30,953 bases of DNA, from IMG/VR virus record IMGVR_UViG_3300045988_046576, positions 1 to 30,953 of that record. The stretch is one strand, 5' to 3'. Positions 1-30,953 of this stretch are shown here, one piece after another. Origin of the DNA: a virus. The position numbers were made by a program, and so were the translations under genes. Under the pieces are notes generated by a model that worked only from the letters and a program-made list of their open reading frames with translations, searched no databases and was not told the DNA's origin. Position 1 is the first letter of the stretch, and each line of letters begins with the position of its first letter.

Positions 1-332
1 CTACAGATGGAGGTGACGGCACCTTAGGTATTGTATTCACTCAGGAAAGAAAAGATAAGATTAGAGCCAAATGTGTTGGGAGACATCCATCAGAAGAAAC
101 TCGAAAAAAGATGAGTAATAGTCATAAAGGTAAAGATTTGAGTTATTTAAATAATTCTTTTGGCAATAATCCTAGAGCTAAAAAAGTAGGTGCATATAAA
201 GACGATGTTCTTATTAAAGAATATGATTGTGCTGTTAGTGCTTCTTTAGATGTTGGAGTTCATAAAAATTCTATTTCTAAAGCAATTAGAGGAGGCTATA
301 AAGTAAAAGGATTTAAATGAAAATATATTTAA
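1..332 (+). CDS. GIY-YIG-type homing endonuclease, C-terminal part (5' end cut by window edge)
   Basis: The frame is open from the window start. It has NUMOD3-like repeats (FTQERKDKIRAK, HPSEETRKKMSNSHKGK) and an IENR1-like tail (KKVGAYKDDVLIKEYDCAVSASLDVGVHKNSISKAIRGGYKVKGFKWKYI). TGA at 318-320 is read as Trp and the true stop is TAA 330-332. Confidence 0.7.
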
Positions 333-346
333 AAATAGTATAGTTT

Positions 347-670
347 ATGGATACCAAAGCTAGTAAGCTCCTTCATAAGACGAAGAGGAAGGTAAAAAGC
401 GAAGAATATTTAAAGTACCAAAGATACATAAGATCGAAAGAATTTAAAGCTATTAGAGAGCTTGTATTGGCAAGAGACAACTATCACTGCCAAGTTTGTA
501 ATTGATGTTTAGAAGATGGAGGAAATCGGGTACTGTCAGTCCATCATAAGACGTATGCAAATTTATTTAAAGAAGGCGGGCATTTGGAAGACTTAATAAC
601 ATTATGTTCTGTTTGCCATAAAGCTATACATTCATCTGTTAGTAACTATCAACGATTTAAGATAAAATAA
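347..670 (+). CDS. small HNH endonuclease (107 aa)
   Basis: ATG 347, TAA 668-670. Motifs are HCQVCNWC...SVHHKTY...LCSVCHKAIH (CxxC / HH / CxxCH zinc-HNH pattern). One in-frame TGA (503-505) gives the W in CNWC. Confidence 0.7.
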
Positions 671-673
671 AGT

Positions 674-704
674 AAGGGAGCCTTTTGAGCTCCCTTTTCT
701 TTTT
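674..704. terminator. bidirectional rho-independent terminator between convergent genes
   Basis: An 8-bp stem AAGGGAGC (674-681) / GCTCCCTT (689-696) with a 7-nt loop is followed by TTCTTTTT. It lies between the + strand HNH gene and the first minus-strand ORF. Confidence 0.6.
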
Positions 705-813
705 AATAGATAATCTTACCAGTTTGCAAATCTATAACTGCATTTAAATCTTTAGGTATCACATACACATAATAGACACCATTTATACATACTTTATAAG
801 TTACATACTCCAT
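703..813 (-). CDS. hypothetical small protein (36 aa)
   Basis: Minus-strand ATG at 813-811, TAA at 705-703. Translation is MEYVTYKVCINGVYYVYVIPKDLNAVIDLQTGKIIY. It is tightly packed with the next ORFs and has no homology signal. Confidence 0.3.
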   Translation of the reverse strand: MEYVTYKVCINGVYYVYVIPKDLNAVIDLQTGKIIY

Positions 814-815
814 AA

Positions 816-986
816 TTAAATAGTTGTTGCGTTTGGAATTTCTTCATCTAAGTCTTCCCATTCTAATACTGGGCGTATTTCAACATCCTTTTTATACTCT
901 CTTGCAATGTTTTCAAGATAAACAATTCTGTACTCAAGTTTTTCGATTCTATCGAATAGTTCATTAATTCTTTCTTTATCAGTCAT
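816..986 (-). CDS. hypothetical small protein (56 aa)
   Basis: Minus strand, MTDKERINELFDRIEKLEYRIVYLENIAREYKKDVEIRPVLEWEDLDEEIPNATTI. It is coiled-coil-like, its Trp is TGG, and a 2-nt gap separates it from neighbours. Confidence 0.4.
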   Translation of the reverse strand: MTDKERINELFDRIEKLEYRIVYLENIAREYKKDVEIRPVLEWEDLDEEIPNATTI

Positions 987-988
987 AA

Positions 989-1156
989 TTAGTCATTTTT
1001 AGAATAAAATTTATAATCTCTTTGGCTTAAAATCTTTTTAATTGCAGCATCCATTTTGCTGCTTTCTTTTTTATGGTATTCCATCCATATATCCAGTTCT
1101 TTTAAGAAGAGGTCTGAATCCCTCAGAACCTCTTCTATCGTTTTCTTTGTTTCCAT
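989..1156 (-). CDS. hypothetical small protein (55 aa)
   Basis: Minus strand, METKKTIEEVLRDSDLFLKELDIWMEYHKKESSKMDAAIKKILSQRDYKFYSKND. Trp is TGG and the stop is TAA 991-989. Confidence 0.4.
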   Translation of the reverse strand: METKKTIEEVLRDSDLFLKELDIWMEYHKKESSKMDAAIKKILSQRDYKFYSKND

Positions 1157-1178
1157 ATGCAAATATAATAATTATATT

Positions 1179-2906
1179 TTAATTTTCCAAATTAAATACG
1201 AATTTTTTATTTAAAATTACATAACCTTCTACTTGTTTGCCTTCAATTCTTTTTTGGCACTTTTTAACGTCATAGTATTTGTCAATCTCAGTAGCTTTAG
1301 GAGCTGTAGTAATTCCTGCAACAGTATAAGCATCTTTTATATACTTCTTAATATCAGCATTAGAATACCACATTCCAAGGCTTAAATGCTCATTTAATTT
1401 CTTTGCAGCTTTGTTATCTGTAGATTTATTAGAAGCTTTGAGTAATTCATCTTTAATTGCGCTAATGCAATACTTTAAACTTGCCATTTTCTCAAATCCG
1501 AGCTTTGTAATAGCATCCATTAACCAAGGATATTTAATCTTAGCGTTATCTAAGATAGGAGTTGCAAATCTATACTTTACTTCCCATTCAGCTCTAATAT
1601 CTTTAATAAGCTCTTTAAATGGTTTGGTATCTGAATCAAAGTCAATCTTAATTGAATTATCCTCGCATTCTACAACCTTTTTAAAGCCATTCTTTAAATA
1701 CTCATTGTTAAGATTAGTTCTAATTGAATATAAACCTCTTGTAACCTTGAAGTTAAATATATCAACTTTAGCCATATTAGGATCAAACGTAAAGGTATAA
1801 TCGTCATTTACTTGAATATAAGTATCACTGGTAAACTCTTTAAGTTTCTTTCTTGCAACTTCTGGCATTGCATTATAAGCCTCAACTGCAATTTTAGTCT
1901 CTTCGATATTCTGGAGATTCTTCTTTCTAAAATCCTCATAAGATACCTCAGCGTATCTTGTTGCAGAATATAAGTGAGTAATCCAATTTAAATACTTACT
2001 ATTTCTAATTCTACCAGCAATCTGCTGAATTGAAGTTGAAATATCAAGTAATGTCTGAGCTTTCTGAGCATCCGAAACTACTACAATACGTCCATTTTCA
2101 TCATAAATATCAGAACCTTCAAATACTGTAGAAGTTAATAAGTTAATCTTTTTAGGTTCATCTAATACAGTAGAGTTCTTAATTGTAAGTTTAGTCTTGT
2201 TATTCTTTGAATAAATAACTCTTGTATTTGATTCATTTAATTTGGCCTTCTGAATAAGGTTCTTTATAAAGTCAACTGAGTTAACAAAGATATATATATT
2301 ACCTTCAACCTGATTGTTTAAAACTGCAGTTATAAGCTTAATAGTTGAAGCCTCAACATTCTTACATTTAACAGCCTGAACTTTAGTCTCTATAACATCA
2401 TCCCATTCTTGTTTTACTAATGGAAGATCTTTTAATTCATCAAGTACAAACTCTTCTTCAAGTGGAGTTGCAGTCATAAAAGTATACTCTTTAAAGAGCT
2501 TATAGTTATCAAGTACAGGTTTAATAGCATCCTTTCTAAAGCTATACTGATTAAAAAGAATATGATACTCATCTACTAATAAACTATAGTCTTTAGGATT
2601 AACTGCCGAAATAACTTTTGGTAAAGAGTTATAAGTAACAATGATTTTAGGGCAATTAACTCGTTTTACATAATCTTTAATCTCTGCAATCGTTACTCCA
2701 GCAAATACACCGAAGATCTCTTCTGTACGTCTTTCATTAGGATACTGTTGAATCTTGTTCTCAACTAAACTGGTAAAAGGAACACAAATAACATAAGGCT
2801 TGTTACATTCAATAGCCATAGAAGTTCCACCACAACCAACTTTTCCTTTGTCAAATAAGCAATTTACAGGTAATTCATCAATAATGTTATTTAAATACGT
2901 TTTCAT
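1179..2906 (-). CDS. superfamily-2 (DExH-type) helicase, 575 aa
   Basis: Intact ORF in the standard code. It has a P-loop-like GKVGCGGTS, motif II LLVDEYH, motif III MTAT and motif VI QIAGRIRN. All 5 Trp codons are TGG, with no in-frame TGA. Confidence 0.7.
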   Translation of the reverse strand: MKTYLNNIIDELPVNCLFDKGKVGCGGTSMAIECNKPYVICVPFTSLVENKIQQYPNERRTEEIFGVFAGVTIAEIKDYVKRVNCPKIIVTYNSLPKVISAVNPKDYSLLVDEYHILFNQYSFRKDAIKPVLDNYKLFKEYTFMTATPLEEEFVLDELKDLPLVKQEWDDVIETKVQAVKCKNVEASTIKLITAVLNNQVEGNIYIFVNSVDFIKNLIQKAKLNESNTRVIYSKNNKTKLTIKNSTVLDEPKKINLLTSTVFEGSDIYDENGRIVVVSDAQKAQTLLDISTSIQQIAGRIRNSKYLNWITHLYSATRYAEVSYEDFRKKNLQNIEETKIAVEAYNAMPEVARKKLKEFTSDTYIQVNDDYTFTFDPNMAKVDIFNFKVTRGLYSIRTNLNNEYLKNGFKKVVECEDNSIKIDFDSDTKPFKELIKDIRAEWEVKYRFATPILDNAKIKYPWLMDAITKLGFEKMASLKYCISAIKDELLKASNKSTDNKAAKKLNEHLSLGMWYSNADIKKYIKDAYTVAGITTAPKATEIDKYYDVKKCQKRIEGKQVEGYVILNKKFVFNLEN

Positions 2907-2942
2907 AATTTAATAAATTTTAAAGGTTAATAATTTAAAGTT

Positions 2943-2985
2943 TTTTATTTTTCTTAATACAAAATGTGAGAAAAAAACTTGACAT
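2943..2985 (+). promoter_or_regulatory. conserved 43-nt bipartite motif, copy A
   Basis: TTTTATTTTTCTTA-N9-GTGAGAAAAAAACTTGACAT. It has the same 14+9+20 architecture as copies at 8285, 17820 and 25147. This copy lies between two minus-strand genes. Confidence 0.6.
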
Positions 2986-2988
2986 CAA

Positions 2989-3019
2989 CTGCCAAAAAGT
3001 GGCAGGACTTTCACCTGCC
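2989..3019 (-). terminator. overlapping hairpins, likely attenuating terminator after the 65-aa leftward gene
   Basis: The hairpins are CTGCCA(2989-2994)/TGGCAG(3000-3005) and GGCAGG(3001-3006)/CCTGCC(3014-3019). They share GGCAG, so they are mutually exclusive. On the minus strand the second hairpin is followed by ACTTTTTGG. Confidence 0.4.
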
Positions 3020-3028
3020 TGGAAGTAG

Positions 3029-3226
3029 TTAAAAAGAAATATTAAAAAATCCAAAAAATGAAGATTTTGATTTCTTAGCTTTCTCAGCCTCTTCATTTTC
3101 TTTAATTTCATCTAAGGCTTCTTCGCATAGAGTTTGAGCCTTTTCAAGAGCTCCTTCTTCAGTAACTTTACCGTTTACTATATCAAGGAAATATTCTAAC
3201 GCTTCAATTTGTTTTTCAGTATTCAT
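3029..3226 (-). CDS. small acidic early protein (65 aa)
   Basis: ORF track entry. It has 15 D/E versus 8 K (net about -7) and a hydrophobic C-terminus SSFFGFFNISF. It is the first gene downstream of two tandem host-type promoters. Confidence 0.55.
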   Translation of the reverse strand: MNTEKQIEALEYFLDIVNGKVTEEGALEKAQTLCEEALDEIKENEEAEKAKKSKSSFFGFFNISF

Positions 3227-3250
3227 AGTTATATGGTTTTATTGTTAATT

Positions 3251-3311
3251 TTGATAGTACAAATATACAACATATTTTTTCAATTTCCAAATTTTTGAGC
3301 AACTTTTTTCA
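3251..3311. repeat. 61-nt direct repeat, copy 1 (promoter cassette)
   Basis: TTGATAGTACAAA...AATTTCCAAATTTTTG...AACTTTTTTCA aligns without gaps to 3349-3409 (period 98 bp), with identical blocks of 13, 16 and 11 nt. Confidence 0.85.
3260..3291 (-). promoter_or_regulatory. Bacteroidota-type promoter P1 (leftward)
   Basis: The minus strand reads TTTG (3291-3288) - 20 nt - TATATTTG (3267-3260). This matches the Bacteroides/Flavobacterium consensus -33 TTTG / -7 TAnnTTTG with 19-21 nt spacing. It lies about 33 nt upstream of the ATG at 3226. Confidence 0.65.
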
Positions 3312-3348
3312 AAAATTTTTCATAGTGTTTAACTATCTATCTCTTATC

Positions 3349-3409
3349 TTGATAGTACAAAGATAATACATAAAAACTAAATTTCCAAATTTTTGGATAA
3401 CTTTTTTCA
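3349..3409. repeat. 61-nt direct repeat, copy 2 (promoter cassette)
   Basis: See copy 1. The conserved blocks coincide with the -33 and -7 promoter elements on the minus strand. Confidence 0.85.
3358..3389 (-). promoter_or_regulatory. Bacteroidota-type promoter P2 (leftward, tandem duplicate)
   Basis: The minus strand reads TTTG (3389-3386) - 20 nt - TATCTTTG (3365-3358), inside repeat copy 2. Confidence 0.6.
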
Positions 3410-3441
3410 GTGAAAAAAATTTAAAAAAAATATGCTAAAAA

Positions 3442-3473
3442 TTTGCATATTAAATATAAAATACTTATATTTG
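3442..3473 (+). promoter_or_regulatory. Bacteroidota-type promoter (rightward)
   Basis: TTTG (3442-3445) - 20 nt - TATATTTG (3466-3473), 45 nt upstream of the ATG at 3519. Confidence 0.6.
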
Positions 3474-3518
3474 CAGTACAATAATAAAATAAGTATTAAC
3501 CTATTAAATATTAAAATT

Positions 3519-3734
3519 ATGAAAAAAGTAAATAAAATATTAACTGGATTATTAGTAATCTCTATGTTTTTCGCTGGTTTTAGACTTTATAACGAGTACC
3601 ATAATGTACAGAAAGAAAGATTAGCTAAAATCGAAAATGCCTATTATAAATGCCAAGATTATCTTTGGGAACATCCTGGTGAATTAGATAGACAACAAAT
3701 TGACTCATTGTATAACTATTATTTAAATGAATAA
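3519..3734 (+). CDS. small membrane-anchored protein (71 aa)
   Basis: Internal ATG of ORF 3432..3734. The sequence MKKVNKILTGLLVISMFFAGF gives a single N-terminal TM/signal-anchor. Trp is TGG. Confidence 0.55.
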   Translation: MKKVNKILTGLLVISMFFAGFRLYNEYHNVQKERLAKIENAYYKCQDYLWEHPGELDRQQIDSLYNYYLNE

Positions 3735-3736
3735 TT

Positions 3737-4171
3737 ATGAAAACAGATATTAGAAGTTTAGTATTTACAAAGTCCTTATTTAAGGATTTATATGGAATAG
3801 ACATAGAATGATCTAAAAACGACTATTCCAGATATGATGGTACATTTAAATGGAATAATGTAGATTATATCGTTGAAGTAAAAAGAAGAAGATTTAAATC
3901 AGATAAATATGATACTACTCTTATTAATAGAGATAAGTTTGATCTATTAGCAAGAAACAATTCAGTATTAGTTATTATATTTGATGATGGAGTTTATATA
4001 TTTAAGGATGTTAAGAAAGCATTCGTTAGAGACTCTTATAAATATGGAAGATCAGCTACAGATTTTGATGGAGAATATGGATACTCTTTAAAGACAGAGT
4101 TATCTTTAAATAAAGCTATTAAAATAGATGTAGATACAGAATTTAGTAATTATAAGCCAAATGAACAATAA
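3737..4171 (+). CDS. putative PD-(D/E)xK-fold nuclease (144 aa)
   Basis: ATG 3737, TAA 4169-4171. The motif ...RYDGTF...DYIVEVKRRRF fits D...(D/E)xK. One in-frame TGA (IEWSK) made the ORF invisible in the standard-code track. Confidence 0.4.
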
Positions 4172-4463
4172 TGACATTATTTTAAAATATTATGATTTCT
4201 GTATAGAATTAAAGACTAAATTTGGAATGAATGAGGATTGCTTTCAGATGGCATTATTAGACATACTGGAAACACCTCATTCTAAACTCCAAAGTCTTCA
4301 TAATAAGAATGAATTAAAATATTGAATTACCAGAGTATTTAAAAACTACTGGTTTTCTAAAAATAGTAGATATTACTATCAATATAAGAAATATTATGAG
4401 ATAGTTAAGGAACCTATTGAACAGCAAATTATCAATGAAGAAAACTATGCAGAAGAAGATTAA
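4161..4463 (+). CDS. sigma-70 region-2-like protein (ECF-like sigma N-terminal half, 100 aa)
   Basis: ...NEDCFQMALLDILE...NELKYWITRVFKNYWFSKNSRYY resembles sigma region 2.1-2.4 (D..Q...l....W...i..N...d..R pattern). There is one in-frame TGA (KYWIT). Stop is TAA 4461-4463. Confidence 0.45.
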
Positions 4464-4704
4464 CATAGACGATATTATGGCGGAATACGATTTAGACTTT
4501 AGTATATTTACAGAGATGAATGATAGATTAATTGAAGTATATCCAAAATGGACATCTCTAAATAAAGCCGATAAAACAGTTATGGTATTATATGCCGAAT
4601 ATCAAAGTTATAGAGAAGTTGGAAAGATACTTGGAATTAGTCATACAACCATAGCAAGGGTAATAGCTAACATTAGAAATAAAATATGTGGAAGGATATG
4701 TTAG
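4435..4704 (+). CDS. sigma-70 region-4-like HTH protein (89 aa)
   Basis: LNKADKTVMVLYAEYQSYREVGKILGISHTTIARVIANIRNKI is a classic region-4 / LuxR-type HTH. The frame differs from 4161..4463 and overlaps it by 29 nt. The start is chosen at ATG 4435 (the track uses TTG 4417). Confidence 0.55.
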   Translation: MKKTMQKKINIDDIMAEYDLDFSIFTEMNDRLIEVYPKWTSLNKADKTVMVLYAEYQSYREVGKILGISHTTIARVIANIRNKICGRIC

Positions 4705-5252
4705 AAGAATGGAAACAATACAAGGATTTTCCTTTTGAAGTAAGTACTCTTGGTAGAGTTAGAACTATGCAAAGGGTAGTCAAATATAAGGATGGCAGAG
4801 AATATAATTACTCAAGTAAGATTATAAAACAATACATTACTAGAGAATATAGTTATATTGTGATTTCACTGCATTCCAAAACATATAATTTTAGAGTGCA
4901 TAGATTAGTAGCTGAAACATTTATACCAAATCCAAATAATTTACCTCAAGTAAATCATATTGACGAAAATAAGTTAAACAATAGAGTTGAAAATCTGGAG
5001 TGGTGTACTGCTAAGTATAATTTAAATTATGGCACTCATACTAAGAAAGTTGTTGAAAAATTAACAAATGGCCCACTTGCTAAAAAAGTAGCTCAGTATG
5101 ACTTAGATGGCAACCTAATTAAAGTATGAGATTCTATAAGAGAAATAAAAAGATGCTTGGGATATGATAATGGAACCATTTCCAAGTTTTGTAGGAACAA
5201 AGTAAATTGTAAACATTGTTATGGGTTTATTTGGAAGTATTCTAATAATTAA
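4686..5252 (+). CDS. HNH homing endonuclease (188 aa)
   Basis: It has a NUMOD4-like N-terminus (FEVSTLGRVRT), an HNH_3-like [37 protein letters not shown], and an IENR1-like tail ending GFIWKYSNN. The TGA at 5127-5129 is read through and the stop is TAA 5250-5252. Confidence 0.8.
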
Positions 5253-5274
5253 TACTGTTATAGTTATATATACT

Positions 5275-5553
5275 ATGTCAGGATTTGATATTCCTATAAG
5301 GAAAAGATTATGAAATTACTTATATAGAGGATTACCATTTAATGAAGATTGGATGATTAAGCCTTGGGTGTGTAGTTGGTGTTTAGGCACCTGAATTGGT
5401 ATAATTAGTTTATTTTGATTTGGGTTTAGTTTGCCGAACTTATTATTAGTATTGCTAGTTGCATACTATAACGACTTAATTAAAGATATTATGATATTAT
5501 TAAAAGATCTATTTAATAAGCTAATAGATTTGATTTATAAAGTCATTAACTAA
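5275..5553 (+). CDS. small membrane protein, DUF1360-like CxxC-W motif (92 aa)
   Basis: MSGFDIPIRKRLWNYLYRGLPFNEDWMIKPWVCSWCLGTWIGIISLFWFGF... contains 3 TGA and 3 TGG Trp codons. It is invisible in the standard-code track. Confidence 0.5.
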
Positions 5554-11046: not shown

Positions 11047-11526
11047 ATGGAAGTATATAAAGACATTAAAGGATATGAGGGACTTTACCAGATAAGTAAT
11101 ACTGGTAAAGTCTTCTCTATAAAAAACAATAAAGAACTGAAGAGTGGATATACTCCAGCTGGATATACAAAAGTTCAATTGTGAAAGAATAAGTCTGGCA
11201 AGTGATTCAATATTCATAGATTAGTTGCAGAAGCGTTTATTCCAAACGTAGAAAACTTACCACAAGTAAATCATATAAATGAGATAAAGGAGGATAATAG
11301 GGTTGATAATTTAGAATGATGTACAGCTCAATATAATGTTACTTATGGAAATAGATTAAATAATAATAAAAAACCTGTAATACAGGAAAGCTTAGATGGC
11401 ACTTTTATAAAGAGATGAAATTCAATTGCTGATACTAAAAAATATGGGTTTGTTCCCCAAAATATAGTACAGTGTTGTATTGGTAATATTTCACAACATA
11501 AAGGATATATTTGAAAATATGCGTAA
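11047..11526 (+). CDS. HNH homing endonuclease (159 aa)
   Basis: [24 protein letters not shown]... (NUMOD4-like) is followed by [37 protein letters not shown] and a tail ending GYIWKYA. All 5 Trp codons are TGA. It overlaps the next gene by 8 nt. Confidence 0.8.
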
Positions 11527-14500
11527 AAATATTAAATTATTTATTGCAGGAAAAGAAGTACATTGTTCTGAAGGTATATCATTACCAATGACTTATACTG
11601 TAGAAGATTTTCAGAATCCAACAATAGTAAAAAATTCATTCAGTAAGACTATAAGCATTCCAGGAGACAAAAATAACAACAAAATATTTGGAGAAATTTA
11701 TAAATTGGATAGATTGCTTCATATTAAAGACGGTAATATATCTGGAATTTACTTCGATCCCTCTAAACGAGTAGATTTCCAAATTTATAACAATAGCTAT
11801 TTAGTTGAATCTGGATATATGCAATTAAATAGTATATCTATAAATAAAGCTGTAATTACCTATAATATTACTTTATATGGAGGTTTAGGCGATTTCTTTT
11901 ACGGTCTTAAATATAAAGAAGACGGAGAAATTAGAACTCTTGCTGATTTACAGTACTTTGTTACTGATGGAGATGGAAACTTATTACCAGAAGATGAAGA
12001 GATGAATTTCACAATTAACAAGGACTTTGTAGATAAATGTTTTAGTTATCCTAATGTAAATAACAACACAAACACTATTTACGACTTTGTTACTTTTACT
12101 CCATCTTATAATGGCTTATATGAGAATTTTGATAACGAGACTTGTTTAATTAATACTAACGGAACAAGTTTATTCCCAACAAGCGCTTCAGATTCTGGCA
12201 ATACATATACTCCTTATAATGGCTATGCTTTAGCATCTTTAAATAAAGCATATACAGAATGGGAAATGAGAGATTTAAGAAGTTATATGCAAAGACCTGC
12301 AATTAAGCTTTCTAAACTTATAGAGACTATTTGCAGAAAAGAGAACTCTGGATACGATGTAATCTTTGATGATTCGTTCTTTAATAGTTCTAATCCTTAT
12401 TGGGATAAGACTTATGTAGCTCTTCCTTTACTTGGGTCAAATTCTGATGAAGGAGAAGAGTCTATTACAGAGAATGCTCAATTACAGAAATATAATGATA
12501 AATTCTGGTGCGGATTACAACCTGGAGGAAGTACTACTTCAGTAAATACTGGTATTTTTACAGTAGCTGGAAGTACAGCCATAGTTCCAGGTGAAAACGG
12601 AGTGATTAATTTAAGTGGAATTCCTGCAAGTGCATTAACTGATATAGATCTTCCAGTACAGCTTGTATTTAATGCAAATACCTCAACTTCTGTAAATGAT
12701 CTGTATTTAAGCTATGTTTTAAATGGTAAGTTGGGAAGTGCTGAATATAGAAACCATCCTTATAGAACATCTGTAACATTACAGTTACTTGTTTATAATG
12801 CAGATGAAAGTCCAATTGGAAGAAAGCCTATAGCATATTCATCATTATATAACTTTACAAACTCTATACAAGGTCAAAGTCCTGCAGGCCCAAATACTTG
12901 GTTTAATTATTATCCTTTAACTGATGCAAAGGTAGAGACTATATTGGGTAACTTTAAAAAGTATCAAGATAAGTTATATACGTTTAATGCAGATAATGGA
13001 AGTAATATTTTCCATTTAACTGTCACAGACATTCCAAAAGTAGACAATATATCTATTTATTTACAAGTAGCCAGAAGAACAGAGAGTCTTTATAATCAAG
13101 ATGTAATGTGGAGTTCTAATAATATGAAACCTGGAACTACTGGAGATTATGCAGTAGCTGGATGGTCTGAAGTATTATTTGATGAGGAAAATTATTCATT
13201 AACAGCTTCTTGGGCATCCTCTGTAGCTTCAGAAACTATTATAACTAAATCTACATTACTTAGAACAGAAAACTCTCCAGCAGACTTCTTATTAAGTTAC
13301 GCAAAACTATTTGGTTTATACTTTAGTAAGGATATAGATTCAAAGACAATTAGAATATATACCAGAAATAACTTCTTTAAAGATAAAATTAATGATTGGT
13401 CTGATAGAATAGATTATTCTAAAGATATAACAGTAAATCCTTTGTTATTTGATAAGAAATGGTATACAATGGCTTTAGAGACTCCAGAAACATATTATGC
13501 TAATAAATACGATAAACAGTATGATATAACTTATGGACAGCAAAGACTTGATACTGGATATAACTTTAACTCGGATAATACTGATTTATATTCAGATAAC
13601 ATTTATGAAAACATTGTATCTGCAAGAGATGTAGATAAATACTTTAGAAACTTCTATAATTCAAATAACGTATCTGTTCCTGCATTTATGAATGACAACA
13701 TTACGTATAGCTTATATAGAACTGTAAGTAATGAAAGAACATCATACGATCAAGATTTATATGGAGCTAACTTTATAGATGTATCTAAAACAGTAGAATG
13801 GTGAAATGTTCCAGGTAATGACATATTTGCCAAAAACTGCTTCTATTCATTAGATAATGCTGAACAGAGCCTTGAAGAGATTAAGTCTGCTTTAGTTATG
13901 TATAATGGAGATGTAGATATGAGTGATATGAATGGTAATCCAATTGAATACTGAATTACAGATGATATATCAGAAATGGCTTTATTAAATGATGGTGAAA
14001 ACTGCTTCTTATATACAACGAGTGAAACAGACAGTTCTGGTAAAAAGATAGCTATTAAAAGAACTACTTTACCTCAGTTTGTAAGATACGTAGATTCAAG
14101 TAATTATGTAACTGCTTCATTAGATTTTGGACTTCCAAGAGAGATATATGTAGATAAGATTAAATACGATGAAGATAGTACTATTTACTACCAATTCTGG
14201 AGAGCATTCTATAATGATCAATTTGATGTAAATACCAAAAAAGTTACTTGCTATGTAAAGATGAATGATTTGGATATCAAGTATGATTTATTAAGAGAAT
14301 TCTATTATTTTGATTCTGCTTATTGAATTCTTAATAAAATAGATTCTTACGACATTAATTCAGATGCAACTACAAGATGTGAGTTTATAAAGGTGCAAAA
14401 TGTAACTAACTACTTATATGGAATTCCAGAATTAGGTGATTATATTATACCAACTCCAAATAATATAGAGGTTCCTTATACAGCAGGTACTACAACTATT

Positions 14501-17941: not shown

Positions 17942-18475
17942 ATGGAAAATATGTATAAAATTTATATGCACAAAAGTCCATCTGGTAATATTTATATTGG
18001 ACAGACTAAAACCTCAACTAATAGAAGATGACAAAATGGCAATGGATATAAAAGTTGCTATGTTTTTAATAGAGCTATACATAAATATGGTTGGGATAAT
18101 TTTGAGCATAAAATATTATATAAAGGTTTATCTCAAATAGAAGCAAATATGATTGAGGAAGATCTTATTTATTATTATAAAAGTATTGGGAAATCGTATA
18201 ATATTAAAGATGGGACTACCTTATCAGTAGATATGTGCAACAAGATTTCCAAAACATCAAAAGGAAAACATCGCTCTCCTAATACAGAATTTAAGAAAGG
18301 GCATTCTTTAAACAGTAAAACGGTAGAACAATATACTTTAGATGGGCACCTTATTAAGGTCTGGAATTCTGCAAGTGAAGCTAGTAGACAATGTAATATT
18401 TGTAGGAGTGGAATTTGTAGAGCTTGTAGAGGTATTACACAAACTTATAAAAACTATATGTGAAAATATGCTTAA
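17942..18475 (+). CDS. GIY-YIG homing endonuclease (177 aa)
   Basis: KIYMHKSPSGNIYIGQT...RRWQNG..GYK...AIHKYGWDNFEH...YNIKDG. The tail has an IENR1-like motif ending YMWKYA. It has 2 in-frame TGAs and overlaps the next gene by 8 nt. Confidence 0.85.
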
Positions 18476-19049
18476 TTTACCTATATTTTATTGTGAAATA
18501 ATAGATTCTGATGAGGGATTAAAAGCTATTTCGTTTGTAGAACATCCTGCTAATGAATCTGATTTTATATGTTTTAGTGAACAAGAAGAACTAAAATTTG
18601 AAATTCAAGATGAAGAGCAGAAAATTGTATCTGGAGTTATAATGCAACCAGATAAACCTATTTACAGACGAGATCCTGATGGCAGAGAATATTATGTAGT
18701 CTTTAGTAAAGACACAATATTTAAAATGGCAGAAAAATTCTTTAGAGATAGTATGCAAAACAATATCACTGCAGATCATAATCGCTTTGTTGATGGAATT
18801 AATTTAGTTGAGATGTTTATAAAGGATTCTTCTAAAGGTATAATTCCAAATTACGTTGATTGTCCCGATGGGACCCTTATGGGAACGTACAAAGTAAATA
18901 ATGAAGAAATATGGCAATCTATCAAAAAAGGATCATTCAAAGGTTTTTCTATCGAGGGTTTATTTACTCTCGAAAGAAAAACTGATGAATATACAGAACT
19001 TAAAGAGATACAAAGAATGTTGAAGAAGATAAAACGAATTAAAAAGTAA
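18468..19049 (+). CDS. XkdF-like putative prohead serine protease (193 aa)
   Basis: ...KIVSGVIMQPDKPIYRRD...FSKDTIFKMAEKFFRD...ADHNRFVDGINLVEMFI...EEIWQSIKKGSFKGFSIEG matches the XkdF family pattern by eye. It sits upstream of the scaffold and capsid genes. Confidence 0.5.
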   Translation: MLNLPIFYCEIIDSDEGLKAISFVEHPANESDFICFSEQEELKFEIQDEEQKIVSGVIMQPDKPIYRRDPDGREYYVVFSKDTIFKMAEKFFRDSMQNNITADHNRFVDGINLVEMFIKDSSKGIIPNYVDCPDGTLMGTYKVNNEEIWQSIKKGSFKGFSIEGLFTLERKTDEYTELKEIQRMLKKIKRIKK

Positions 19050-24786: not shown

Positions 24787-24787
24787 T

Positions 24788-25288: not shown

Positions 25289-25681
25289 ATGTATTACACT
25301 CTATTAATTCAGAATACTGTGAGTAAAGAAGTATATACATATAATTTGGAGAATTTAAATTATGACGAAAATATTTATTATAAGTTTAATATTGTGCTGG
25401 ATGATAATACACCTGACGGAGAATACCAATATTTGTTATTTGAGAATCCAAATCAAATTGAAGTTGTAGTAAACTATAACAACGTCTATGATAGCAAGTT
25501 ATATGGAGATACTAAAATATTAGTAACGTTTACTAATACACTTACTAATGGAACTCAGATATTAATTGCTGGTAAGCCTATTATGTGACTATCTAGTGGA
25601 TTAATAAGAATAGGAGACTATAAATCTAACAATTATCAATATAACAAACAAAACAAATACCAAGTATATGACAGAAAATAA
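25289..25681 (+). CDS. hypothetical protein (130 aa)
   Basis: The start is moved to ATG 25289 (MYYTLLIQ...). The TGA at 25586-25588 is read through to TAA 25679-25681. Confidence 0.45.
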
Positions 25682-26351
25682 GAAAAGTTTGAAGTCAGGT
25701 ACGATTAAAAGAAATTATACTGGAGTAATATATTTAATTCACTCTAAGATAACAGGAAAAATGTATATAGGGCAGACTTGCAGATCATTTAATACGAGAT
25801 GAAGGCAACACTGTAATGAGAGCTTTAATGAAAATTCAAAAAGTTATAATCATCATTTTCATAAAGCTATAAGGTTATATGGAACAGATAATTGAGATTA
25901 TAAAATACTTAAAATATTTTCCTGCTCTTCAAAAGAATTACTAAAGAAACAGTTAAATATTTCTGAAGTTGAATATATAACTTTATATGATACATTTAAA
26001 AATGGATATAATTCGACTTTAGGAGGGGAGGGAACTATAGGAAAAGATCCCTGAAATAAGGGTAAAAAAGGAGTGCAACAATGCAATGAAGAGACTCGAA
26101 AAAAGATGAGTGCATCTAGATCTGGAGAAAAGAATGGTATGTATGGAAGACACCGAACCGAAGAAGAGAAGGAAAATCTACGGAAAAGGTGAAGTAAACC
26201 CGTAAACCAATTAGATTTAGACGGTAACTTTATTAAGAGATGAAATTCTTGTAAAGAAGCACAACAAAGTGGTTATAAAAATATTTATAGTGTACTTTAT
26301 GGAAAAAATAAACAATGTAAAGGGTTTAAATGAGAATGGGCCCAAAAATAA
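25668..26351 (+). CDS. GIY-YIG homing endonuclease (227 aa)
   Basis: GVIYLIHSKITGKMYIGQT...RWRQH...YGTDNWDYKIL...NGYNSTLGGEG, with NUMOD3-like NEETRKKMSASRSGEKNGMYGRHRTEEEKENLRKRW and an IENR1-like tail GFKWEWAQK. Six of 7 Trp codons are TGA. Confidence 0.85.
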
Positions 26352-26358
26352 AATAAAG

Positions 26359-27396
26359 ATGTCGGCACTAGATCCATATATTGTAAGTAACATAGTAGAG
26401 CCTACAGAAAGTAAGAAAAGAGGATCAGATATGATAATATGAGGCGATAATAATCGCTATCCTATTTACTTATGGGATCTATATTTAAACTGTGCAACAT
26501 TACAGTCAATTATCAACGGAACTGCCGATTTTATCGTTGGAGACGATGTTATTTGTAATAAAGAGGGATTTAACGTAGTTGTTAATAAGAAAGGCGAAAC
26601 AATAGTAGACATCTTTAGAAAGATAGCAATAGATAAGATGATTTTTGGAGGATATGCTGTTCAAGTAATTAGAAATATGGTTGGAGAAGTTAGTGAGATT
26701 TATCACTTAGACTTTATGAAGGTCCGTTCTAATGAAAAGAATACTGTTCTTTATTATGCAGATGATTGGGAGGCTTGGTCAGTTAAGGCTTTAACTTATC
26801 CTAAATATGAGATAAATGATAGTGCTCCCGCTTCTGTAGTTTATAATAAAGGCTATGTAACAAGAAGTGTATATCCAATTCCAGTTTATGGAGCTGCTCT
26901 ATTAAGTTGCGAAACTGAGAAGTGCATTAATCAATTCCATTTAAATAATCTTAATAATGGATTTATGAGTAATGTTATTATTAACTTTAATAATGGAACT
27001 CCTACAGATGAAGCACAAGAAGAGATTGAACGTAATATTAACGAGAAGTTCTCTGGATACCAAAATACTGGACGTATTCTTATTTCTTATAATGATTCAG
27101 ATGTAAATAAGACTACTGTTGAAAGACTTGATTCTGATGATTTTGATGAACGATATGAATCATTAGCAACTAGAACAAGAGAGCAAATATTCTGCGCTTT
27201 TAGAGCTAATCCTGTGTTGTTCGGTATTAATTATGCTTCTGGATTCTCAAAACAAGAGTATCAGCAAGCATTTGATTTATATAATCGAACTATGGTGCAG
27301 CCAATACAAAAAGATATTTGTAAAAGTTTCGATACTATCTTTGGAATGAAAAATTCTGTTACAGTGGTACCTTTTAGTATGAATTGAAATGAATAA
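26359..27396 (+). CDS. portal protein (345 aa)
   Basis: ...IIWGDNNRYPIYLWDLYLNCATLQSIINGTADFIVGDDV... and downstream blocks resemble the Phage_portal family by eye. It has 2 in-frame TGAs. Stop is TAA 27394-27396. Confidence 0.6.
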
Positions 27397-27982
27397 TTAT
27401 ACTGTTTATTGCCATATTAATAAATATAATAATAAAATTTATATAGGTATTACTGGACAAGATCCTAAAAAACGTTGAGGAAATGGGAAAGGTTATAAAA
27501 ATTCCTTTTTCTTTAATGCAATACAAAAATATGGCTGAGATAATTTCGAGCATAAAATCCTGTATACTAATTTATCTAAATTAGATGCAGAGCTTATAGA
27601 AATAGATTTAATACATTATTATAAATCTATTAATAAAAGCTATAATATTGCTAATGGAGGTAATGTTACTACAGGATTGAAGATGTCAGAAAAAGCGAGA
27701 AAAAACATATCACAAGGGCATATAGGACTTAAAAGAAGTGATTCGTTTAAAGAGAAGATAAGAGTTGCTAATAAAAATCGTTCTGATGAAATAAAAAGAA
27801 AACTGATAGATAGCAATAAACGTCCTATAATTCAGCTATCATTAGATGGAGTCTTTATAAAAGAATATGAGAGTATTAAAGATGCAGAGTTACAATTAGG
27901 TATATGCCATCAAAATATATCTAAATGTTGTAAAAACATCTATAAAACTGCTGGAGGATATAAATGACAGTATAAACAGTAA
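27389..27982 (+). CDS. GIY-YIG homing endonuclease (197 aa)
   Basis: YTVYCHINKYNNKIYIGITGQDPKKRWGNGKGYK...AIQKYGWDNFEHKIL...YNIANGG, with an IENR1-like tail ending GGYKWQYKQ. All 3 Trp codons are TGA. It overlaps the portal stop by 8 nt. Confidence 0.85.
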
Positions 27983-27993
27983 AATTATTTATT

Positions 27994-28647
27994 ATGGAAT
28001 ATAGAAACGTATTACTTATATCGGAAGATTACATTAAGTCAGAAAGCAATTTAGATAACAACATTTCTGGCAAATATCTTCAAAGTGCTATTAAACTAGC
28101 ACAAGACATAGAACTGCAGTCTTTAATTGGAACTAAGCTATTAGAGGCATTACAAAAGAAATGTATTGACTGAGTAGATCCAAGTGTTGAAGATGCAGTT
28201 GCAGATTCAATAGATGATCCAGATAATATTAAGTATAAAGAACTATTAGATTACTATGTTACTCCATTCTTGTTATTTCAAGTATTGTCAGAAGTAATCG
28301 TTCCTATTACTTATAAGCTAAGTAATTTTGGAGTTATGAGAACTGATGATGAGAAAGATATAGCTGCAGATGCAAGTCAAGTTAATCTATTACGTAAATA
28401 TTACAAAGATAAAGCAGATTTCTTTAAAGCAAGATTACAAGATTGGGTTATTACATATTATAATGATTTTCCTGAATTATATTCATATAAACCATTAAAA
28501 GATATGTATCCTAATTTATATAGCGCAAGTAGCTGCGGTATTTGGTTAGGTGGTGCTAGAGGTAAGGGATTTTATACTAATCCAAATATAGGACCTTTAC
28601 AGAGAGCTTATGATTTCCCAAGTTCAAATAACAATAAAAAGAAATAG
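27994..28647 (+). CDS. putative head-tail connector / head completion protein (217 aa)
   Basis: MEYRNVLLISEDYIKSESNLDNNISGKYLQSAIKLAQDIELQSLIGTKLLEAL... resembles gp6-like connector N-termini by eye. One TGA (IDWVD). Confidence 0.35.
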
Positions 28648-28648
28648 T

Positions 28649-29074
28649 ATGACATATTATGAAATAATCAATGGGCTAAAAGAATCTGCTCTTATGGAGC
28701 CTAATATTAATTTCGCTGGCAGTAAAGATATCTATGAGTTAAATAGCCTTCCTAATATAGATTATAATGTATTCTATATAACTCCAAATACATTTAATCT
28801 TGATGAAGATACTATTACATACTCATTGAATCTTTACTATGTTGCCAGATGAGATGAAACAGACGAGAATCAACTTGAAGAACAGTCTGCTGGAATTTTA
28901 GCTCTTACAAATATAATTAACCGATTTAATAACATCTATCCTGATGTTCAATTATCTTACCCTTTAATATTTACTCCATTTTATCAAAAGTTCAAAGATA
29001 TATGTACTGGAATATTTGTAAGAGTAGATATAATGGTAGATAATGTATTAGGAGTTTGTACAGAGACTATGTAA
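28649..29074 (+). CDS. hypothetical virion-module protein (141 aa)
   Basis: The start is moved to ATG 28649 (MTYYEIING...). The TGA at 28850-28852 is read through, and TAA 29072-29074 overlaps the next ATG (TAATG). Confidence 0.45.
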
Positions 29075-29730
29075 TGGAAAACAAATTAAAATGATTCGGA
29101 CAGGTACTTGATTGAGTTAATAAATACGGGTTATGACAGATTATAAAAGGCGGATTTGCATTTATATTTGTATCTTATGTCTTTATAATCTCTCTAAATC
29201 CAGGCATTATATATGATAAGGTTGCTACTTACATAGAAAATGTCCATAACGTTAAGCAAGTAACCAGACAAGATGCAGACATCAAAATACGTTACATCTT
29301 GAAAGATTTAAGAGTATCTACAAATGCAGATAGAGCTTGAGTTATTGAATACCATAATGGTACATCTGGATTAGGAGGACTTCCATTTACATACGGAATT
29401 ATGAATAACGAAGAATTAGAAGAAGGAGTGTGTTCAGTATCTAGACATTATAGAGACTTCTTGTTATCTGAGTATTTGTTTATTTTGGAGACTTCTAAAC
29501 AAGGTGGATGAATAGGTAGTGTTGAGGATATAAAACAGTATGATACAAAAATGTACTATTCGTTTAAATCTAATGGTATTAATAAATTAGCTTTATTTTA
29601 TTTAAAATCGGAAGATAGAGATATTGGAGTAGTCGGCCTTTCATATTGTGATAATGAGATGCCAGAAGATACTTGAGTTAAATTAAGAGATGCAGGAATA
29701 AAGATAAGCATAATTTTAAATAAAAAGTAA
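29074..29730 (+). CDS. N-terminally membrane-anchored protein, possible sensor (GAF-like) domain; lysis-cassette associated (218 aa)
   Basis: This gene is completely invisible in the standard-code track. All six Trp codons are TGA. It has a TM segment GGFAFIFVSYVFIISL, and the soluble part ...ADRAWVIEYHNGTSGLGGLPF...DIGVVGLSY... is weakly GAF-like by eye. Confidence 0.5.
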
Positions 29731-29731
29731 T

Positions 29732-29893
29732 ATGAAGTATTGGGTAAAGTATTTAATCGCAGTTGTGATAATTATTGCAGTTTTGGTATTAGTAAAAGTA
29801 ATTCCTTTCTGGATTACTATGGTATTACTTGCTTTAGCAGTAGGTAGCCATTTATTTTACAGATATCTAACACTTAAAGATATTATAAAATAA
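29732..29893 (+). CDS. putative holin, two TM segments (53 aa)
   Basis: MKYWVKYLIAVVIIIAVLVLVKVIPFWITMVLLALAVGSHLFYRYLTLKDIIK. A TAATG overlap couples it to the endolysin gene. Confidence 0.5.
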   Translation: MKYWVKYLIAVVIIIAVLVLVKVIPFWITMVLLALAVGSHLFYRYLTLKDIIK

Positions 29894-30342
29894 TGAAGTA
29901 TTTTACAGTAGAGGAGTTAACTGAATCATCTACAGCAATTAAGGAAAATATAGACAACACTCCAAGTAAGGAGATCACTGAACACCTAATTGAGTTAATA
30001 GAGGAACTCTTAGACCCTATTAGAGAAAAATGGGCAGAGTATTGTAATATTAATAAACTTGGAAATCCAGCAATAAGTGTAAGTTCAGGTTATAGATGCA
30101 AAGAGCTTAATAAAGCTGTAAATGGTTCAGTTACATCTGCACATATGACGGGTTATGCTGCAGACCTTCAAAATGTCTCTGGAAGTAGAGAAGAGTTTTA
30201 TCAATTCCTATTAAACTTTTTGAAGGATAGAAATTTCGATGAATGTTTTATAGAAAAAAGTCGTACATCTCAATGAGTGCATATTGCTTTATATAGTATT
30301 AAAGGACTACAACGAAGAAAAAAAGGTAATTTGTATGTATAG
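29893..30342 (+). CDS. endolysin, peptidase M15 (VanY / L-Ala-D-Glu peptidase-like), 149 aa
   Basis: It has SGYRCKELNKAV, SAHMTGYAAD and, after reading TGA 30274-30276 as Trp, WVHIA. These are the Zn-binding H/D/H motifs of M15 peptidases. Stop is TAG 30340-30342. Confidence 0.75.
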
Positions 30343-30953
30343 TATCTATGTTCATATAAATAAATTAAATCATAAAATGTATTTTGGGATCACCAAACAA
30401 AATCCAAAAAGACGTTTTAGAGACGGAGAAGGTTATAAAAGTTGTACAAAATTCTACAAAGCAATACAGAAATATGGCTGAGATAATTTCGAGCACATTA
30501 TAATCAAAACAGATATGCCAAAAGAATGTGCAGAGACTTTAGAGAAGATATTAATCTATAAATATGACACCATAAATTCTGGATATAATTTAGATGGCGG
30601 AGGTAATTTACATTTAGCAACTAAAGAAAGTAAAATAAAAAGCTCAGAATCACACAAAGGAAAGAAACTATCACAAAGTACTAAAGATAAACTACGTATT
30701 TCTACTACAGAATTGTGAAAAGACCCTATTTATAGATCTAAATGCCAATCTAAGAAAGGCCGAAACGTTCCTCCAGTAAGTGAAAATACTAAAGAGAAAA
30801 TAAGTGATTCAATTAAAAAACTATGACTTAATGATGAATATGTAAATAAGTGTAAGAAAGGTCTAGAAACATATCATAAAATGCATAGTAAACCAATACG
30901 GGCAATTAATGAAGATGTGGTTTTGGAGTTCGATTCTGTATCTGAAGCTGTAC
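30335..30953 (+). CDS. GIY-YIG homing endonuclease, N-terminal part (3' end cut by window edge)
   Basis: MYSIYVHINKLNHKMYFGITKQNPKRRFRDGEGYK...AIQKYGWDNFEH...SGYNLDGGG, then NUMOD3-like repeats and the start of an IENR1-like motif. Three Trp codons so far, all TGA. Confidence 0.8.

Follow-up and report, generated by a model that had tools for sequence, protein, structure and literature searches.

How does a phage genome of about 30 kb come to hold so many homing endonuclease genes, and does it matter to these genes that they are written in an altered genetic code? The DNA analysed here (the window, 30,953 nucleotides, the whole of positions 1 to 30,953 of IMG/VR record IMGVR_UViG_3300045988_046576) is essentially the complete ~30.5 kb genome of a tailed human-gut phage that reads TGA as Trp. 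Reading through TGA (code 4) raises open reading frame coverage from 25.7 to 34.5 kb, and many genes have in-frame TGA at conserved Trp positions, aligned with TGG in paralogs and in standard-code homologs, as in stop-codon-recoded phages. The window showed neither a TGA suppressor tRNA nor other code-change machinery, 41 related loci yielded no tRNA, and Rfam returned none. Because a phage-borne TGA suppressor tRNA is detectable in only 35% of published code-4 phages, such a tRNA is not a strict requirement.

The initial annotation listed eight free-standing endonuclease genes, five GIY-YIG and three HNH, and all eight reading frames are present when TGA is read as Trp. They add up to 4,134 bp (13.4% of the window), and each has in-frame TGA and would be truncated if TGA were a stop. 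These genes, and the neighbouring genes and tracts located below, lie on the plus strand unless stated otherwise. Pfam or paralogy upholds the domain calls, two of them (27389-27982 and 347-670) with borderline scores. Both HNH_4686 (4686..5252) and HNH_11047 (11047..11526) match HNH_3 and NUMOD4 (PF13392 and PF07463). The GIY-YIG model (PF01541) scores above its cutoff in GIY_25668 (25668..26351; 30.7 bits) and in the two genes cut by the window ends, namely variant 1 (25.7 bits at full length) and variant 2 (30.7 bits, or 30.3 for the full-length protein); GIY_27389 (27389..27982) reaches 22.5 bits against a cutoff of 22.6. The same model misses GIY_17942 (17942..18475), which is a full-length paralog of GIY_27389 (42% identity, E 2e-41). 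All five GIY-YIG genes carry C-terminal DNA-binding modules of the NUMOD1, NUMOD3 or I-HmuI_NUMOD-like kind. With a catalytic domain joined to a DNA-binding module, they are homing endonucleases of the I-TevI/Seg type, and site-specific cleavage of the endonuclease-less allele is predicted. The population as a whole is made up of I-HmuI-like HNH_3/NUMOD4 genes and GIY-YIG/NUMOD genes with a NUMOD1-like DNA-binding module in common at the C-terminus, and of one small HNH gene.

The existence of these genes is thus confirmed, and their number was set too high. Within the window, variant 1 (1..332) consists of the last 110 codons of a 591-nt gene (196 aa), with NUMOD3 and NUMOD1 and without the catalytic domain, while variant 2 (30335..30953) consists of the first 619 of 708 nt (235 aa); its start and the endolysin stop share an 8-nt overlap, and the window end cuts it. 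One related contig (L108), 99.986% identical to window 16186-30953, extends 89 nt beyond the end, completes the 235-aa gene and then joins window position 659. Another (L105), 99.9% identical to window 1-12908, runs from the endolysin through a complete 196-aa GIY-YIG gene to the small HNH gene HNH_347 (347..670). Therefore, the terminal fragments are alternative alleles of one post-endolysin site, and a genome has six or seven endonuclease genes. Both alleles rejoin the backbone at a bidirectional terminator-like hairpin (674..696), whose sequence also follows the variant 2 stop in L108, L001 and L002. The contig was opened within this strain-level polymorphism.

It is very unlikely that all eight genes belong to one genome, either with the terminal fragments in tandem or with the two fused, across a circular junction, into a single 316-aa gene. 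When the two ends of the window are joined, a 951-nt open frame without stops does result, but its product would be chimeric, half of a NUMOD1 running into the tail of another GIY-YIG domain, and the 26-mer spanning the junction is absent from IMG/VR. Moreover, L108 and L105, both more than 99.8% identical to the window, show one arm each; a further contig (L107) begins exactly at window position 1; and the length of L105, 30,670, equals the 30,593 predicted for a single-arm genome plus 77. The real genome therefore has six or seven endonuclease genes occupying ~12% of its length: two I-HmuI-like HNH genes, four or five GIY-YIG genes and one small HNH gene, set between conserved phage genes.

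Among relatives, variant 1 is 89-97% identical in five loci (L014, L015, L018, L021 and L024), and internally deleted remnants of variant 2 occur in L001 and L002. The 107-aa HNH_347 travels with variant 1; it is ~80% identical in L003, L010, L011 and L023, truncated in L017 and absent from most relatives. Since it scores 21.1 bits against the HNH cutoff of 21.4 and Pfam recognises no DNA-binding domain in it, it may be an accessory nuclease instead of a homing enzyme. We rejected a role as a terminase-associated HNH packaging helper, given its distance of 5.5 kb from TerL and its absence from most relatives.

The initial annotation also regarded the genes as selfish elements in translationally coupled positions between essential genes, and this description is accurate. 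The neighbours are a sigma-like gene and a membrane gene, two giant tail genes, the TMP and protease genes, both flanks of the portal gene, and the endolysin; the reported 8-nt and 14-nt overlaps are correct, and HNH_4686 has further overlaps of 19 and 32 nt. Across more than 50 related contigs of ~30 kb, endonucleases are present or absent at exact junctions, and endonuclease-minus alleles exist. The family as a whole has at least 14 insertion sites and ~34 endonuclease lineages, and deleted endonuclease remnants also occur in it. Flanks show the conversion tracts anticipated for homing, 200-430 bp long. Site polymorphism, excess identity and converted flanks were all found for HNH_4686, HNH_11047, GIY_25668 and GIY_27389.

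HNH_11047, between the two giant tail genes, is the most recently mobile copy. It is colinear with I-HmuI (PDB 1U3E; E 5e-23, query residues 4-158 of 159) and is 99-100% identical at the nucleotide level in six loci (L008, L030, L041, L052, L053 and L055) whose backbones are 60-80% identical. Its site is empty (9-10 bp) in ~27 loci, with a clean junction against L025. A co-conversion tract (11519..11700) lies at the 5' end of the next tail gene; it is 73-82% identical to L025, against a backbone of 95-100%, and 94-99% identical to donors that carry HNH_11047. HNH_4686 is an I-HmuI-like enzyme with NUMOD4, HNH_3 and NUMOD1. Most relatives have its site empty (29 bp), and the gene is present at 99% amino acid identity in L008, L014 and L015, which are 96-100% identical to the window over 4700-5500 and 65-85% over the backbone; in L002 this tract is replaced despite a backbone that is 97-100% identical. 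A small membrane-protein gene (5221..5553), which starts within the 3' end of HNH_4686 with the 32-nt overlap, moves jointly with it.

GIY_25668, with a NUMOD3 module, sits after portal codon 9 and, compared with L001 and L002, adds 664 bp in a clean insertion. Some 40 loci have this site empty (20 bp), while L008 and L036 have the gene there at 84% amino acid identity. GIY_27389, with a NUMOD1 module, directly follows the portal gene with an 8-nt overlap. About half of the relatives lack an insert at its site (25-33 bp), and the rest hold either its own lineage or lineages only 36-42% identical. In L111 a 59% ortholog occupies this site. The 3' end of the portal gene (27200..27396) diverges in step with its presence, with 71-72% identity to L002 against 97-99% just upstream and a different C-terminal peptide. 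GIY_17942, between the TMP and head protease genes and with a NUMOD1 module, is present in L108 and absent from all IMG/VR relatives searched, which makes it unique to the window lineage. Beside it, the 5' part of the protease gene (18468..18900) has been replaced and cannot be aligned to L025 or L027, while flanks on both sides are 96-100% identical.

Each endonuclease is wired into the late operon by capturing either the start codon of the essential gene downstream or that gene's first 5-9 codons, for which a replacement ATG sits inside or just after the last endonuclease codons; essential-gene expression is therefore kept. The ATG of HNH_4686 occupies the position of the downstream gene's coupled start in endonuclease-minus alleles. 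The end of HNH_11047, TGA AAA TAT GCG TAA, holds the ATG of the next gene. The first five codons of GIY_17942 (MENMY) are the protease start in endonuclease-minus relatives, and the new protease ATG falls inside the last codons of GIY_17942. GIY_25668 uses the original portal start (MTENKKSLK), and the portal restarts at the ATG at 26359. No group I or group II intron or other RNA family around these reading frames was matched in Rfam at E<=1. For a splice to restore the portal frame, the intron would have to end in A and not G, and the new ATG appears to serve instead. The endonucleases are thus free-standing and not intron-encoded, with the neighbouring gene re-started rather than spliced.

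This pattern points to intronless homing and to recent copying between phages, and we hold the identity and the mobility of these genes with high confidence. By analogy with the enzyme families concerned, each endonuclease would cut or nick an endonuclease-less allele near its own insertion site during mixed infection, and recombinational repair from the carrier genome would transfer to the recipient both the gene and 200-430 bp of adjoining sequence, as for the T4 Seg and Mob enzymes. Like Seg (GIY-YIG) and Mob (HNH), the genes lie between conserved essential genes in the orientation of their neighbours, vary in presence among relatives and are associated with co-converted flanking markers. 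Unlike Seg and Mob, they are written with TGA as Trp, several capture the start or first codons of the downstream gene, and their activity is predicted.

The load is high, and its share of the genome is comparable to that of T4, in which 15 endonuclease genes take up ~11% of coding potential, a figure termed astounding (PMC2988022). The density differs: T4 has one gene per 11 kb over 169 kb, whereas this ~30.5 kb genome has roughly one per 4.5-5 kb. Complete relatives carry one to eight endonuclease genes (1.1-12.3% of length). Lactococcal Skunavirus genomes are similar in that the copy number and location of I-HmuI-like HNH genes vary among ~30 kb phages and the genes cluster by insertion site, but they average ~2.4 HNH endonucleases (212 in 89 genomes; PMC12724721), and the family studied here reaches six to eight per genome with HNH and GIY-YIG genes mixed. 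I-HmuI itself, from Bacillus phage SPO1, is intron-encoded, unlike the free-standing HNH genes of the window, although HNH_11047 aligns with it at full length and both HNH_3 genes have the NUMOD4 and HNH_3 architecture. The window offers a dense and well-documented example of selfish elements whose kind is already known, and not a new kind.

Turning to the code, the endonucleases had been called the most TGA-rich genes of the window. The ratios on which this was based (5/5 Trp codons in HNH_11047, 6/7 in GIY_25668 and 3/3 in GIY_27389) are correct, and as a class the endonucleases are enriched, with 22 of 29 Trp codons written as TGA against 33 of 92 in other genes (Fisher p=2e-4). The superlative holds only in part: HNH_4686 has one TGA to four TGG, and the gene at 29074-29730 (6/0) and TerL (3/0) are equally TGA-only. 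Family-wide, the proportions are 167/257 (65%) for endonucleases and 838/2430 (34%) for other genes. Capsid genes are essentially free of TGA throughout the family, with none in 130 Trp codons of the MCP, and an endonuclease lineage sited within this capsid module has no TGA and two TGG. The enrichment is real and not unique, since a TGA-preferring endonuclease has been published for another recoded phage clade: as here, a homing endonuclease of the TGA-recoded gut phages called Agate favours TGA over TGG more than other genes do (bioRxiv 10.1101/2021.08.26.457843). Agate phages differ in being ~127 kb, often with suppressor tRNAs, and in having the endonuclease intron-encoded in an early gene; the window phage is ~30 kb, with no suppressor tRNA found, many free-standing genes in late operons and TGA-free capsid genes.

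Two causes of the bias may be considered. In code 4 a change from TGG to TGA would be silent and AT-ward, so that abundant capsid proteins might retain TGG while low-abundance, fast-turnover genes such as endonucleases drift to TGA. We favour this tentatively, at slightly less than even chances. Two observations run counter to drift: the conserved TerL is also ~50% TGA, and GC3 shows no difference between endonucleases and other genes. Alternatively, as Borges et al. proposed for the Agate intron endonuclease (bioRxiv 10.1101/2021.08.26.457843), in-frame TGA might hold back the translation of endonucleases until late infection, when TGA comes to be read as Trp, and so restrict their action to the period in which recombination-dependent replication and repair templates are at hand. 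The Agate precedent, a group I intron endonuclease family that prefers TGA (p=1.3e-3), is consistent with such timing control, as are the use of middle or late but never early promoters by T4 endonucleases (PMC2988022) and the near absence of TGA, across the family, from the putative early gene 1179-2906 on the minus strand. However, the late and most abundant capsid genes are TGA-free too, which misfits an early-versus-late split, and the ~30 kb genome showed no candidate switch in the form of a suppressor tRNA, a release factor or a Trp-tRNA synthetase gene. We consider timing control unlikely. Taken as a whole, a recoded phage with a population of homing endonucleases, spreading by intronless homing and subject to TGA drift, is probably the best explanation.

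A last claim of the initial annotation was that the endonucleases are co-adapted to, and probably confined to, a pool of TGA-recoded phages. Set against the refuting condition named there, the homologs divide, and confinement is neither supported nor refuted. The nearest (57-99% identity) are same-site orthologs in recoded relatives (L111 and L137), and those that follow (42-54%) belong to standard-code phages, namely L112, L114 and L138 and cultured Streptococcus, Enterococcus and Bacteroides phages, where the corresponding Trp codons are TGG. No recent cross-code transfer was seen in either direction among the homologs compared. If the altered code were a containment wall for selfish DNA, TGA-drifted endonucleases would home only among code 4 phages and be locked out of standard-code phages, and a private, fast-diversifying pool (~34 lineages and at least 14 sites in one ~30 kb phage family) would also drive mosaicism within the family. 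It would fit that every homolog above 57% identity is in a recoded relative, that homolog searches found no near-identical copies in other phage types, and that each endonuclease of the window contains one or more in-frame TGA codons, in many cases in the early part of the catalytic domain. Yet endonucleases are normally closest to those of their own phage relatives, so the same pattern is expected without any barrier. In rough trees, standard-code genes at 42-54% interleave with recoded lineages, and therefore the code has not acted as a long-term barrier; the identity of HNH_11047 to a standard-code gene (54%) exceeds that to its paralog in the window (37%). Furthermore, a single G-to-A change per codon turns TGG into TGA, so TGA content says little about origin, and some lineages of the family lack TGA. 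Explanations simpler than co-adaptation exist for the TGA richness. A containment wall is unlikely, and we give it somewhat less weight than timing control. A shared 3' end, TGA-AAA-TAT-GCN-TAA, embeds the downstream ATG, and coupling of the essential gene that follows could depend on TGA reading there.

The endonuclease genes of this genome are of a known kind, free-standing homing endonucleases, here in a TGA-recoded gut phage family, and that family gives direct population evidence of homing; the set is real, well supported and unusually dense. The positions, neighbours and overlaps reported for these genes in the initial annotation were correct on re-check, and Pfam upheld most of its domain calls. 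HNH_4686 (genes are named by type and window start, all on the plus strand) spans 4686-5252 with NUMOD4, HNH_3 and NUMOD1; HNH_11047 (11047-11526) has NUMOD4 and HNH_3; GIY_25668 (25668-26351) combines GIY-YIG and NUMOD3 with a sub-threshold NUMOD1; and the gene at 30335-30953 matches GIY-YIG. Two calls fell just under the cutoff: HNH_347 (347-670), a borderline HNH at 21.1 bits for a cutoff of 21.4, and GIY_27389 (27389-27982), whose GIY-YIG scores 22.5 bits for a cutoff of 22.6 and which also has NUMOD1. GIY_17942 (17942-18475), where Pfam finds NUMOD1 only, owes its GIY-YIG assignment to paralogy, being full-length paralogous to GIY_27389 (42% identity, E 2e-41), and the fragment at 1-332 shows NUMOD3 and NUMOD1 only. 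The GIY-YIG and HNH genes have a C-terminal DNA-binding module in common (39-45% identity). HNH_11047 can be aligned end to end with I-HmuI (PDB 1U3E, E 5e-23); a sequence search of GIY_27389 against PDB gave no match.

Relatives were gathered with two probes, the 575-aa gene and the capsid gene, which returned more than 50 loci from relatives of ~30 kb, and empty and occupied alleles were scored by anchor spacing across each site. Endonuclease-minus alleles, proposed as a check in the initial annotation, were found at defined sites: spacing is 29 bp empty and 508-567 bp occupied for HNH_4686, 9-10 and 482 bp for HNH_11047, 20 and 648 bp for GIY_25668, and 25-33 and 605-682 bp for GIY_27389. 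GIY_17942 occurs in no IMG/VR relative and is present in L108, a contig near-identical to the window. The divergence anticipated in flanking genes also appeared, as conversion tracts. The clearest mobility signal is sliding identity at HNH_11047, which is 99-100% identical at the nucleotide level in six genomes with only 60-80% backbone identity to the window, with identity raised for ~200 bp on each side. In one relative (L025), the backbone matches the window at 95-100% and HNH_11047 is missing; just downstream, at 11500-11700, L025 drops to 73-82%, and there the window matches the HNH_11047 donors at 94-99%. A tract made up of HNH_4686 and the small membrane gene 5221-5553 follows suit: it matches the window at 96-100% in relatives whose backbones match at 65-85%, and in L002, a relative otherwise near-identical to the window, it is replaced. 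GIY_17942 is linked to a replaced ~430 bp at the protease 5' end, and GIY_27389 to divergence over the final ~200 bp of the portal gene.

Clustered at 90%, the family's endonucleases form ~24 GIY-YIG and 10 HNH_3 lineages; the insertion sites number at least 14, and in the window seven are empty. Complete relatives hold 1 to 8 endonuclease genes, or 1.1-12.3% of the genome. A 235-aa GIY-YIG gene found after the endolysin survives as internally deleted remnants in L002 and another relative, L001. This pattern of presence and absence, conversion and remnants is what would be expected of intronless homing, from which we infer cleavage, and of the cycle of invasion, decay and loss that such elements go through. 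The seven empty intergenic points, where relatives hold endonuclease genes or remnants of 291-756 bp (~4154-4164, ~4402-4455, ~19037-19046, ~19651-19662, ~20601-20627, ~25276-25286 and ~29058-29073), are candidate target sites at which the window genome could still be invaded. Taken alone, these endonucleases do not show a new mechanism. The family is of moderate interest as a natural, densely sampled system for homing between phages: it offers dozens of ~30 kb gut genomes on one backbone, with donor alleles, recipient alleles and conversion tracts readable directly from metagenomes.

At their junctions, the elements take over an essential gene's translation start and give back a replacement, which keeps the operon working. 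GIY_25668 opens with the start and nine initial codons that belong to the portal gene in the endonuclease-minus L001 (MTENKKSLK); a new ATG, 7 nt past the GIY_25668 stop, serves as the portal start. MENMY is common to the start of GIY_17942 and that of the L025 protease, and the ATGs of HNH_4686 and HNH_11047 take the position of the downstream gene's ATG in empty alleles. HNH_11047 (11508-11526) and GIY_17942 (18457-18475) have identical ends, TGA AAA TAT GCN TAA (W-K-Y-A-stop), which embed the next gene's ATG in an 8-nt overlap. In a standard-code reading the TGA of this end would stop 4 nt before the downstream ATG, so start-stop coupling would work under either code. Intron-encoded endonucleases were rejected, since Rfam models gave no match to an intron around the endonuclease genes, nor was any Rfam family present in the window; the portal junction, from its sequence, probably permits no frame-restoring group I splice.

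The initial annotation counted eight endonuclease genes; the genes are real, and their number is six or seven per genome. IMG/VR relatives join the endolysin region directly to window ~655, so the window is in essence a complete genome in permuted form; contigs of relatives span 27-34 kb. When the window is closed into a circle, a 951-nt open frame spans the joint; its product is chimeric, with parts of two endonucleases. A single gene wrapped across the ends would be in frame, but it is ruled out by three independent contigs, and IMG/VR does not contain the 26-mer across the junction. L108, 99.986% identical to window 16186-30953, extends 89 nt beyond the window end and completes the 235-aa GIY-YIG gene, whose protein terminates ...SEAVRYLNKTDRSGIYRTVGTSKKAYGYRWEYI*; after its stop, the contig joins the sequence of window 659-679. 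L105, 99.9% identical to window 1-12908, runs from endolysin to a complete 196-aa GIY-YIG gene, the last 110 codons of which are window 3-332, and then to HNH_347. L107, from the same sample as L108, starts exactly at window position 1. At full length, each of the two proteins scores above the Pfam GIY-YIG cutoff, and no contig examined has both genes at this site. The fragments at either end of the window substitute for one another at a single post-endolysin site, and the contig opened inside that bubble. The genome therefore carries seven endonuclease genes (3,774 bp in ~30.6 kb, 12.3%) or six (3,567 bp in ~30.4 kb, 11.7%), a share at least as large as in T4, the textbook outlier. The size of L105, 30,670 nt or the predicted 30,593 plus 77, would fit a circular contig with a k-mer overlap. 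A bidirectional terminator-like hairpin at 674-696, where both alleles of the site rejoin, closes the long plus-strand operon.

In the window genes TGA evidently encodes tryptophan. Coverage by stop-to-stop ORFs with a minimum of 100 codons is 25.7 kb in the standard code, 34.5 kb with TGA readthrough and 28.0 kb with TAG readthrough, and TGA as a sense codon makes nearly the entire plus strand a single gene array. Window TGA stands opposite TGG in paralogous motifs (YGwDNFEH and YGWDNFEH; the C-terminal G-x-x-W-x-Y) and in standard-code homologs. PHROGs identified, all on the plus strand, the large terminase (6240-7487), tape measure protein (14974-17745), head protease (~18468-19049), major-capsid-like protein (19686-20591), portal (~26359-27396) and M15 peptidase endolysin (29893-30342). 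The window and 41 related loci yielded no tRNA, suppressor or other, and no release factor or Trp-tRNA synthetase is among the annotated genes. The window has a G+C content of 30.5%. Promoter-like counts were not above shuffled expectation; the 196-nt gap that precedes GIY_17942 and the protease gene contains a sigma-70-like site (11/12 match, 17856-17884). BLAST cross-matches also revealed a ~78-nt internal repeat at ~79% identity (24027-24104 and 24297-24374) within the tail-fibre gene 22777-24786.

Recoded codons are unevenly distributed among these genes. The TGA ratios first quoted for individual endonucleases were correct on recount, and as a class they are enriched, with TGA at 22/29 Trp codons against 33/92 in other window genes (Fisher p=2e-4) and, among unique sequences of the family, at 167/257 (65%) against 838/2430 (34%). 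The claim that they are the most TGA-rich genes went too far: 22777-24786 (78%), 4435-4704 (77%), 5221-5553 (63%) and 29074-29730 (60%) are also high, and HNH_4686 has TGA at only 1/5. The bias is genuine, yet common to other genes and with published precedent, since three families prefer TGA in the recoded Agate phages and a group I intron endonuclease family is among them (Borges et al., bioRxiv 10.1101/2021.08.26.457843); the present family is a second, independent recoded clade with TGA-favouring endonucleases. AT-richness as sole cause is ruled out by an endonuclease GC3 (0.16-0.30) similar to that of other genes. Avoidance of TGA is the sharper pattern. Across the family TGA makes up 0/130 Trp codons in the capsid protein, 0/23 in the scaffold-like gene, 1/73 in 20632-21150, 4/50 in the protease and 1/96 in the 575-aa minus-strand gene 1179-2906, so recoded-codon use is two-tiered within one small genome. 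In the window itself, the capsid block comprising the first four of these (18468-22526) and 1179-2906 have zero TGA, and G+C in the block is raised to 0.36-0.40. An endonuclease lineage within the block likewise has zero TGA, in two Trp codons only. Delayed translation has been proposed as the reason for TGA preference in Agate phages (same reference), but in this phage TGA is absent from the capsid genes, which are late and abundant, and the window genome shows no code-switch gene. For these reasons we favour an account in which selection would keep TGG in abundant proteins while the remaining genes drift to TGA. The complete avoidance of TGA by capsid genes is relevant to the question of why phages reassign stop codons.

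Human gut metagenomes are the source of contigs that match the window at more than 99.9% identity, and a megablast against GenBank phages found no match at the DNA level. The best matches in a major capsid protein scan of GTDB genomes (54-60%) were short contigs binned to Clostridia MAGs; integrated relatives of the capsid gene, in Bacteroidota chromosomes (L123, L124, L129-L132), reached only 33-41%. L111 (ENA ERZ27297796 k141_591157, 32.3 kb), a distant recoded relative, has a phage integrase and BACON/DUF285 tail proteins; this set suggests temperate members in the wider group and hints at a Bacteroidota host. L001 (IMGVR_UViG_3300045988_175865, 148.6 kb) holds a full phage-genome copy preceded by large recoded tail-fibre-like genes (1-9092), some with collagen-like repeats. 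These upstream 9 kb rule out a host chromosome with a prophage, and the contig may have arisen by chimeric or concatenated assembly of strain variants, or may represent an array of tail-fibre cassettes.

A possible reading of the TGA bias is that the code acts as a firewall, confining TGA-rich endonucleases to recoded phages as the initial annotation had thought probable. The nearest homologs (57-99%) are indeed recoded, but the next (54% or less) are standard-code. GIY_27389 matches its own cluster at 99%, then L111 at 57-59% (P0003, at the same post-portal site, with 3 TGA and 2 TGG), then others at 49% or less; the two of these inspected, in L112 (42%) and L114 (45%), have 0 TGA and 7 TGG, and a gene adjoining the one in L114 terminates in TGA. 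HNH_11047 matches its own cluster at 99%, a near-identical cluster at 95%, the recoded L137 at 62% (same site, 3 TGA and 2 TGG) and L138 at 54%, a standard-code 37 kb phage with eight genes without in-frame TGA and one TGA stop. Cultured standard-code phages also carry homologs (42% in Streptococcus Str-PAP-1, ~40-44% in Bacteroides crAss-like phages, 47% in Enterococcus EFRM31). Because such identities equal or beat those among the window paralogs (31-42%), and neighbour-joining trees, though unsupported, place standard-code genes among recoded ones, the genetic code has not isolated these genes over long times. Recent cross-code transfer was not seen among the homologs compared. The firewall has no positive support, and confinement is unproven. 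Standard-code homologs of GIY_27389 lie directly after the portal gene in Bacteroides phage PhiCrAssBcn23 (L141) and between terminase and portal in Lactobacillus phage Ld17 (L142), and this lineage may have a preference for sites next to the portal gene, even in phages unrelated to one another.
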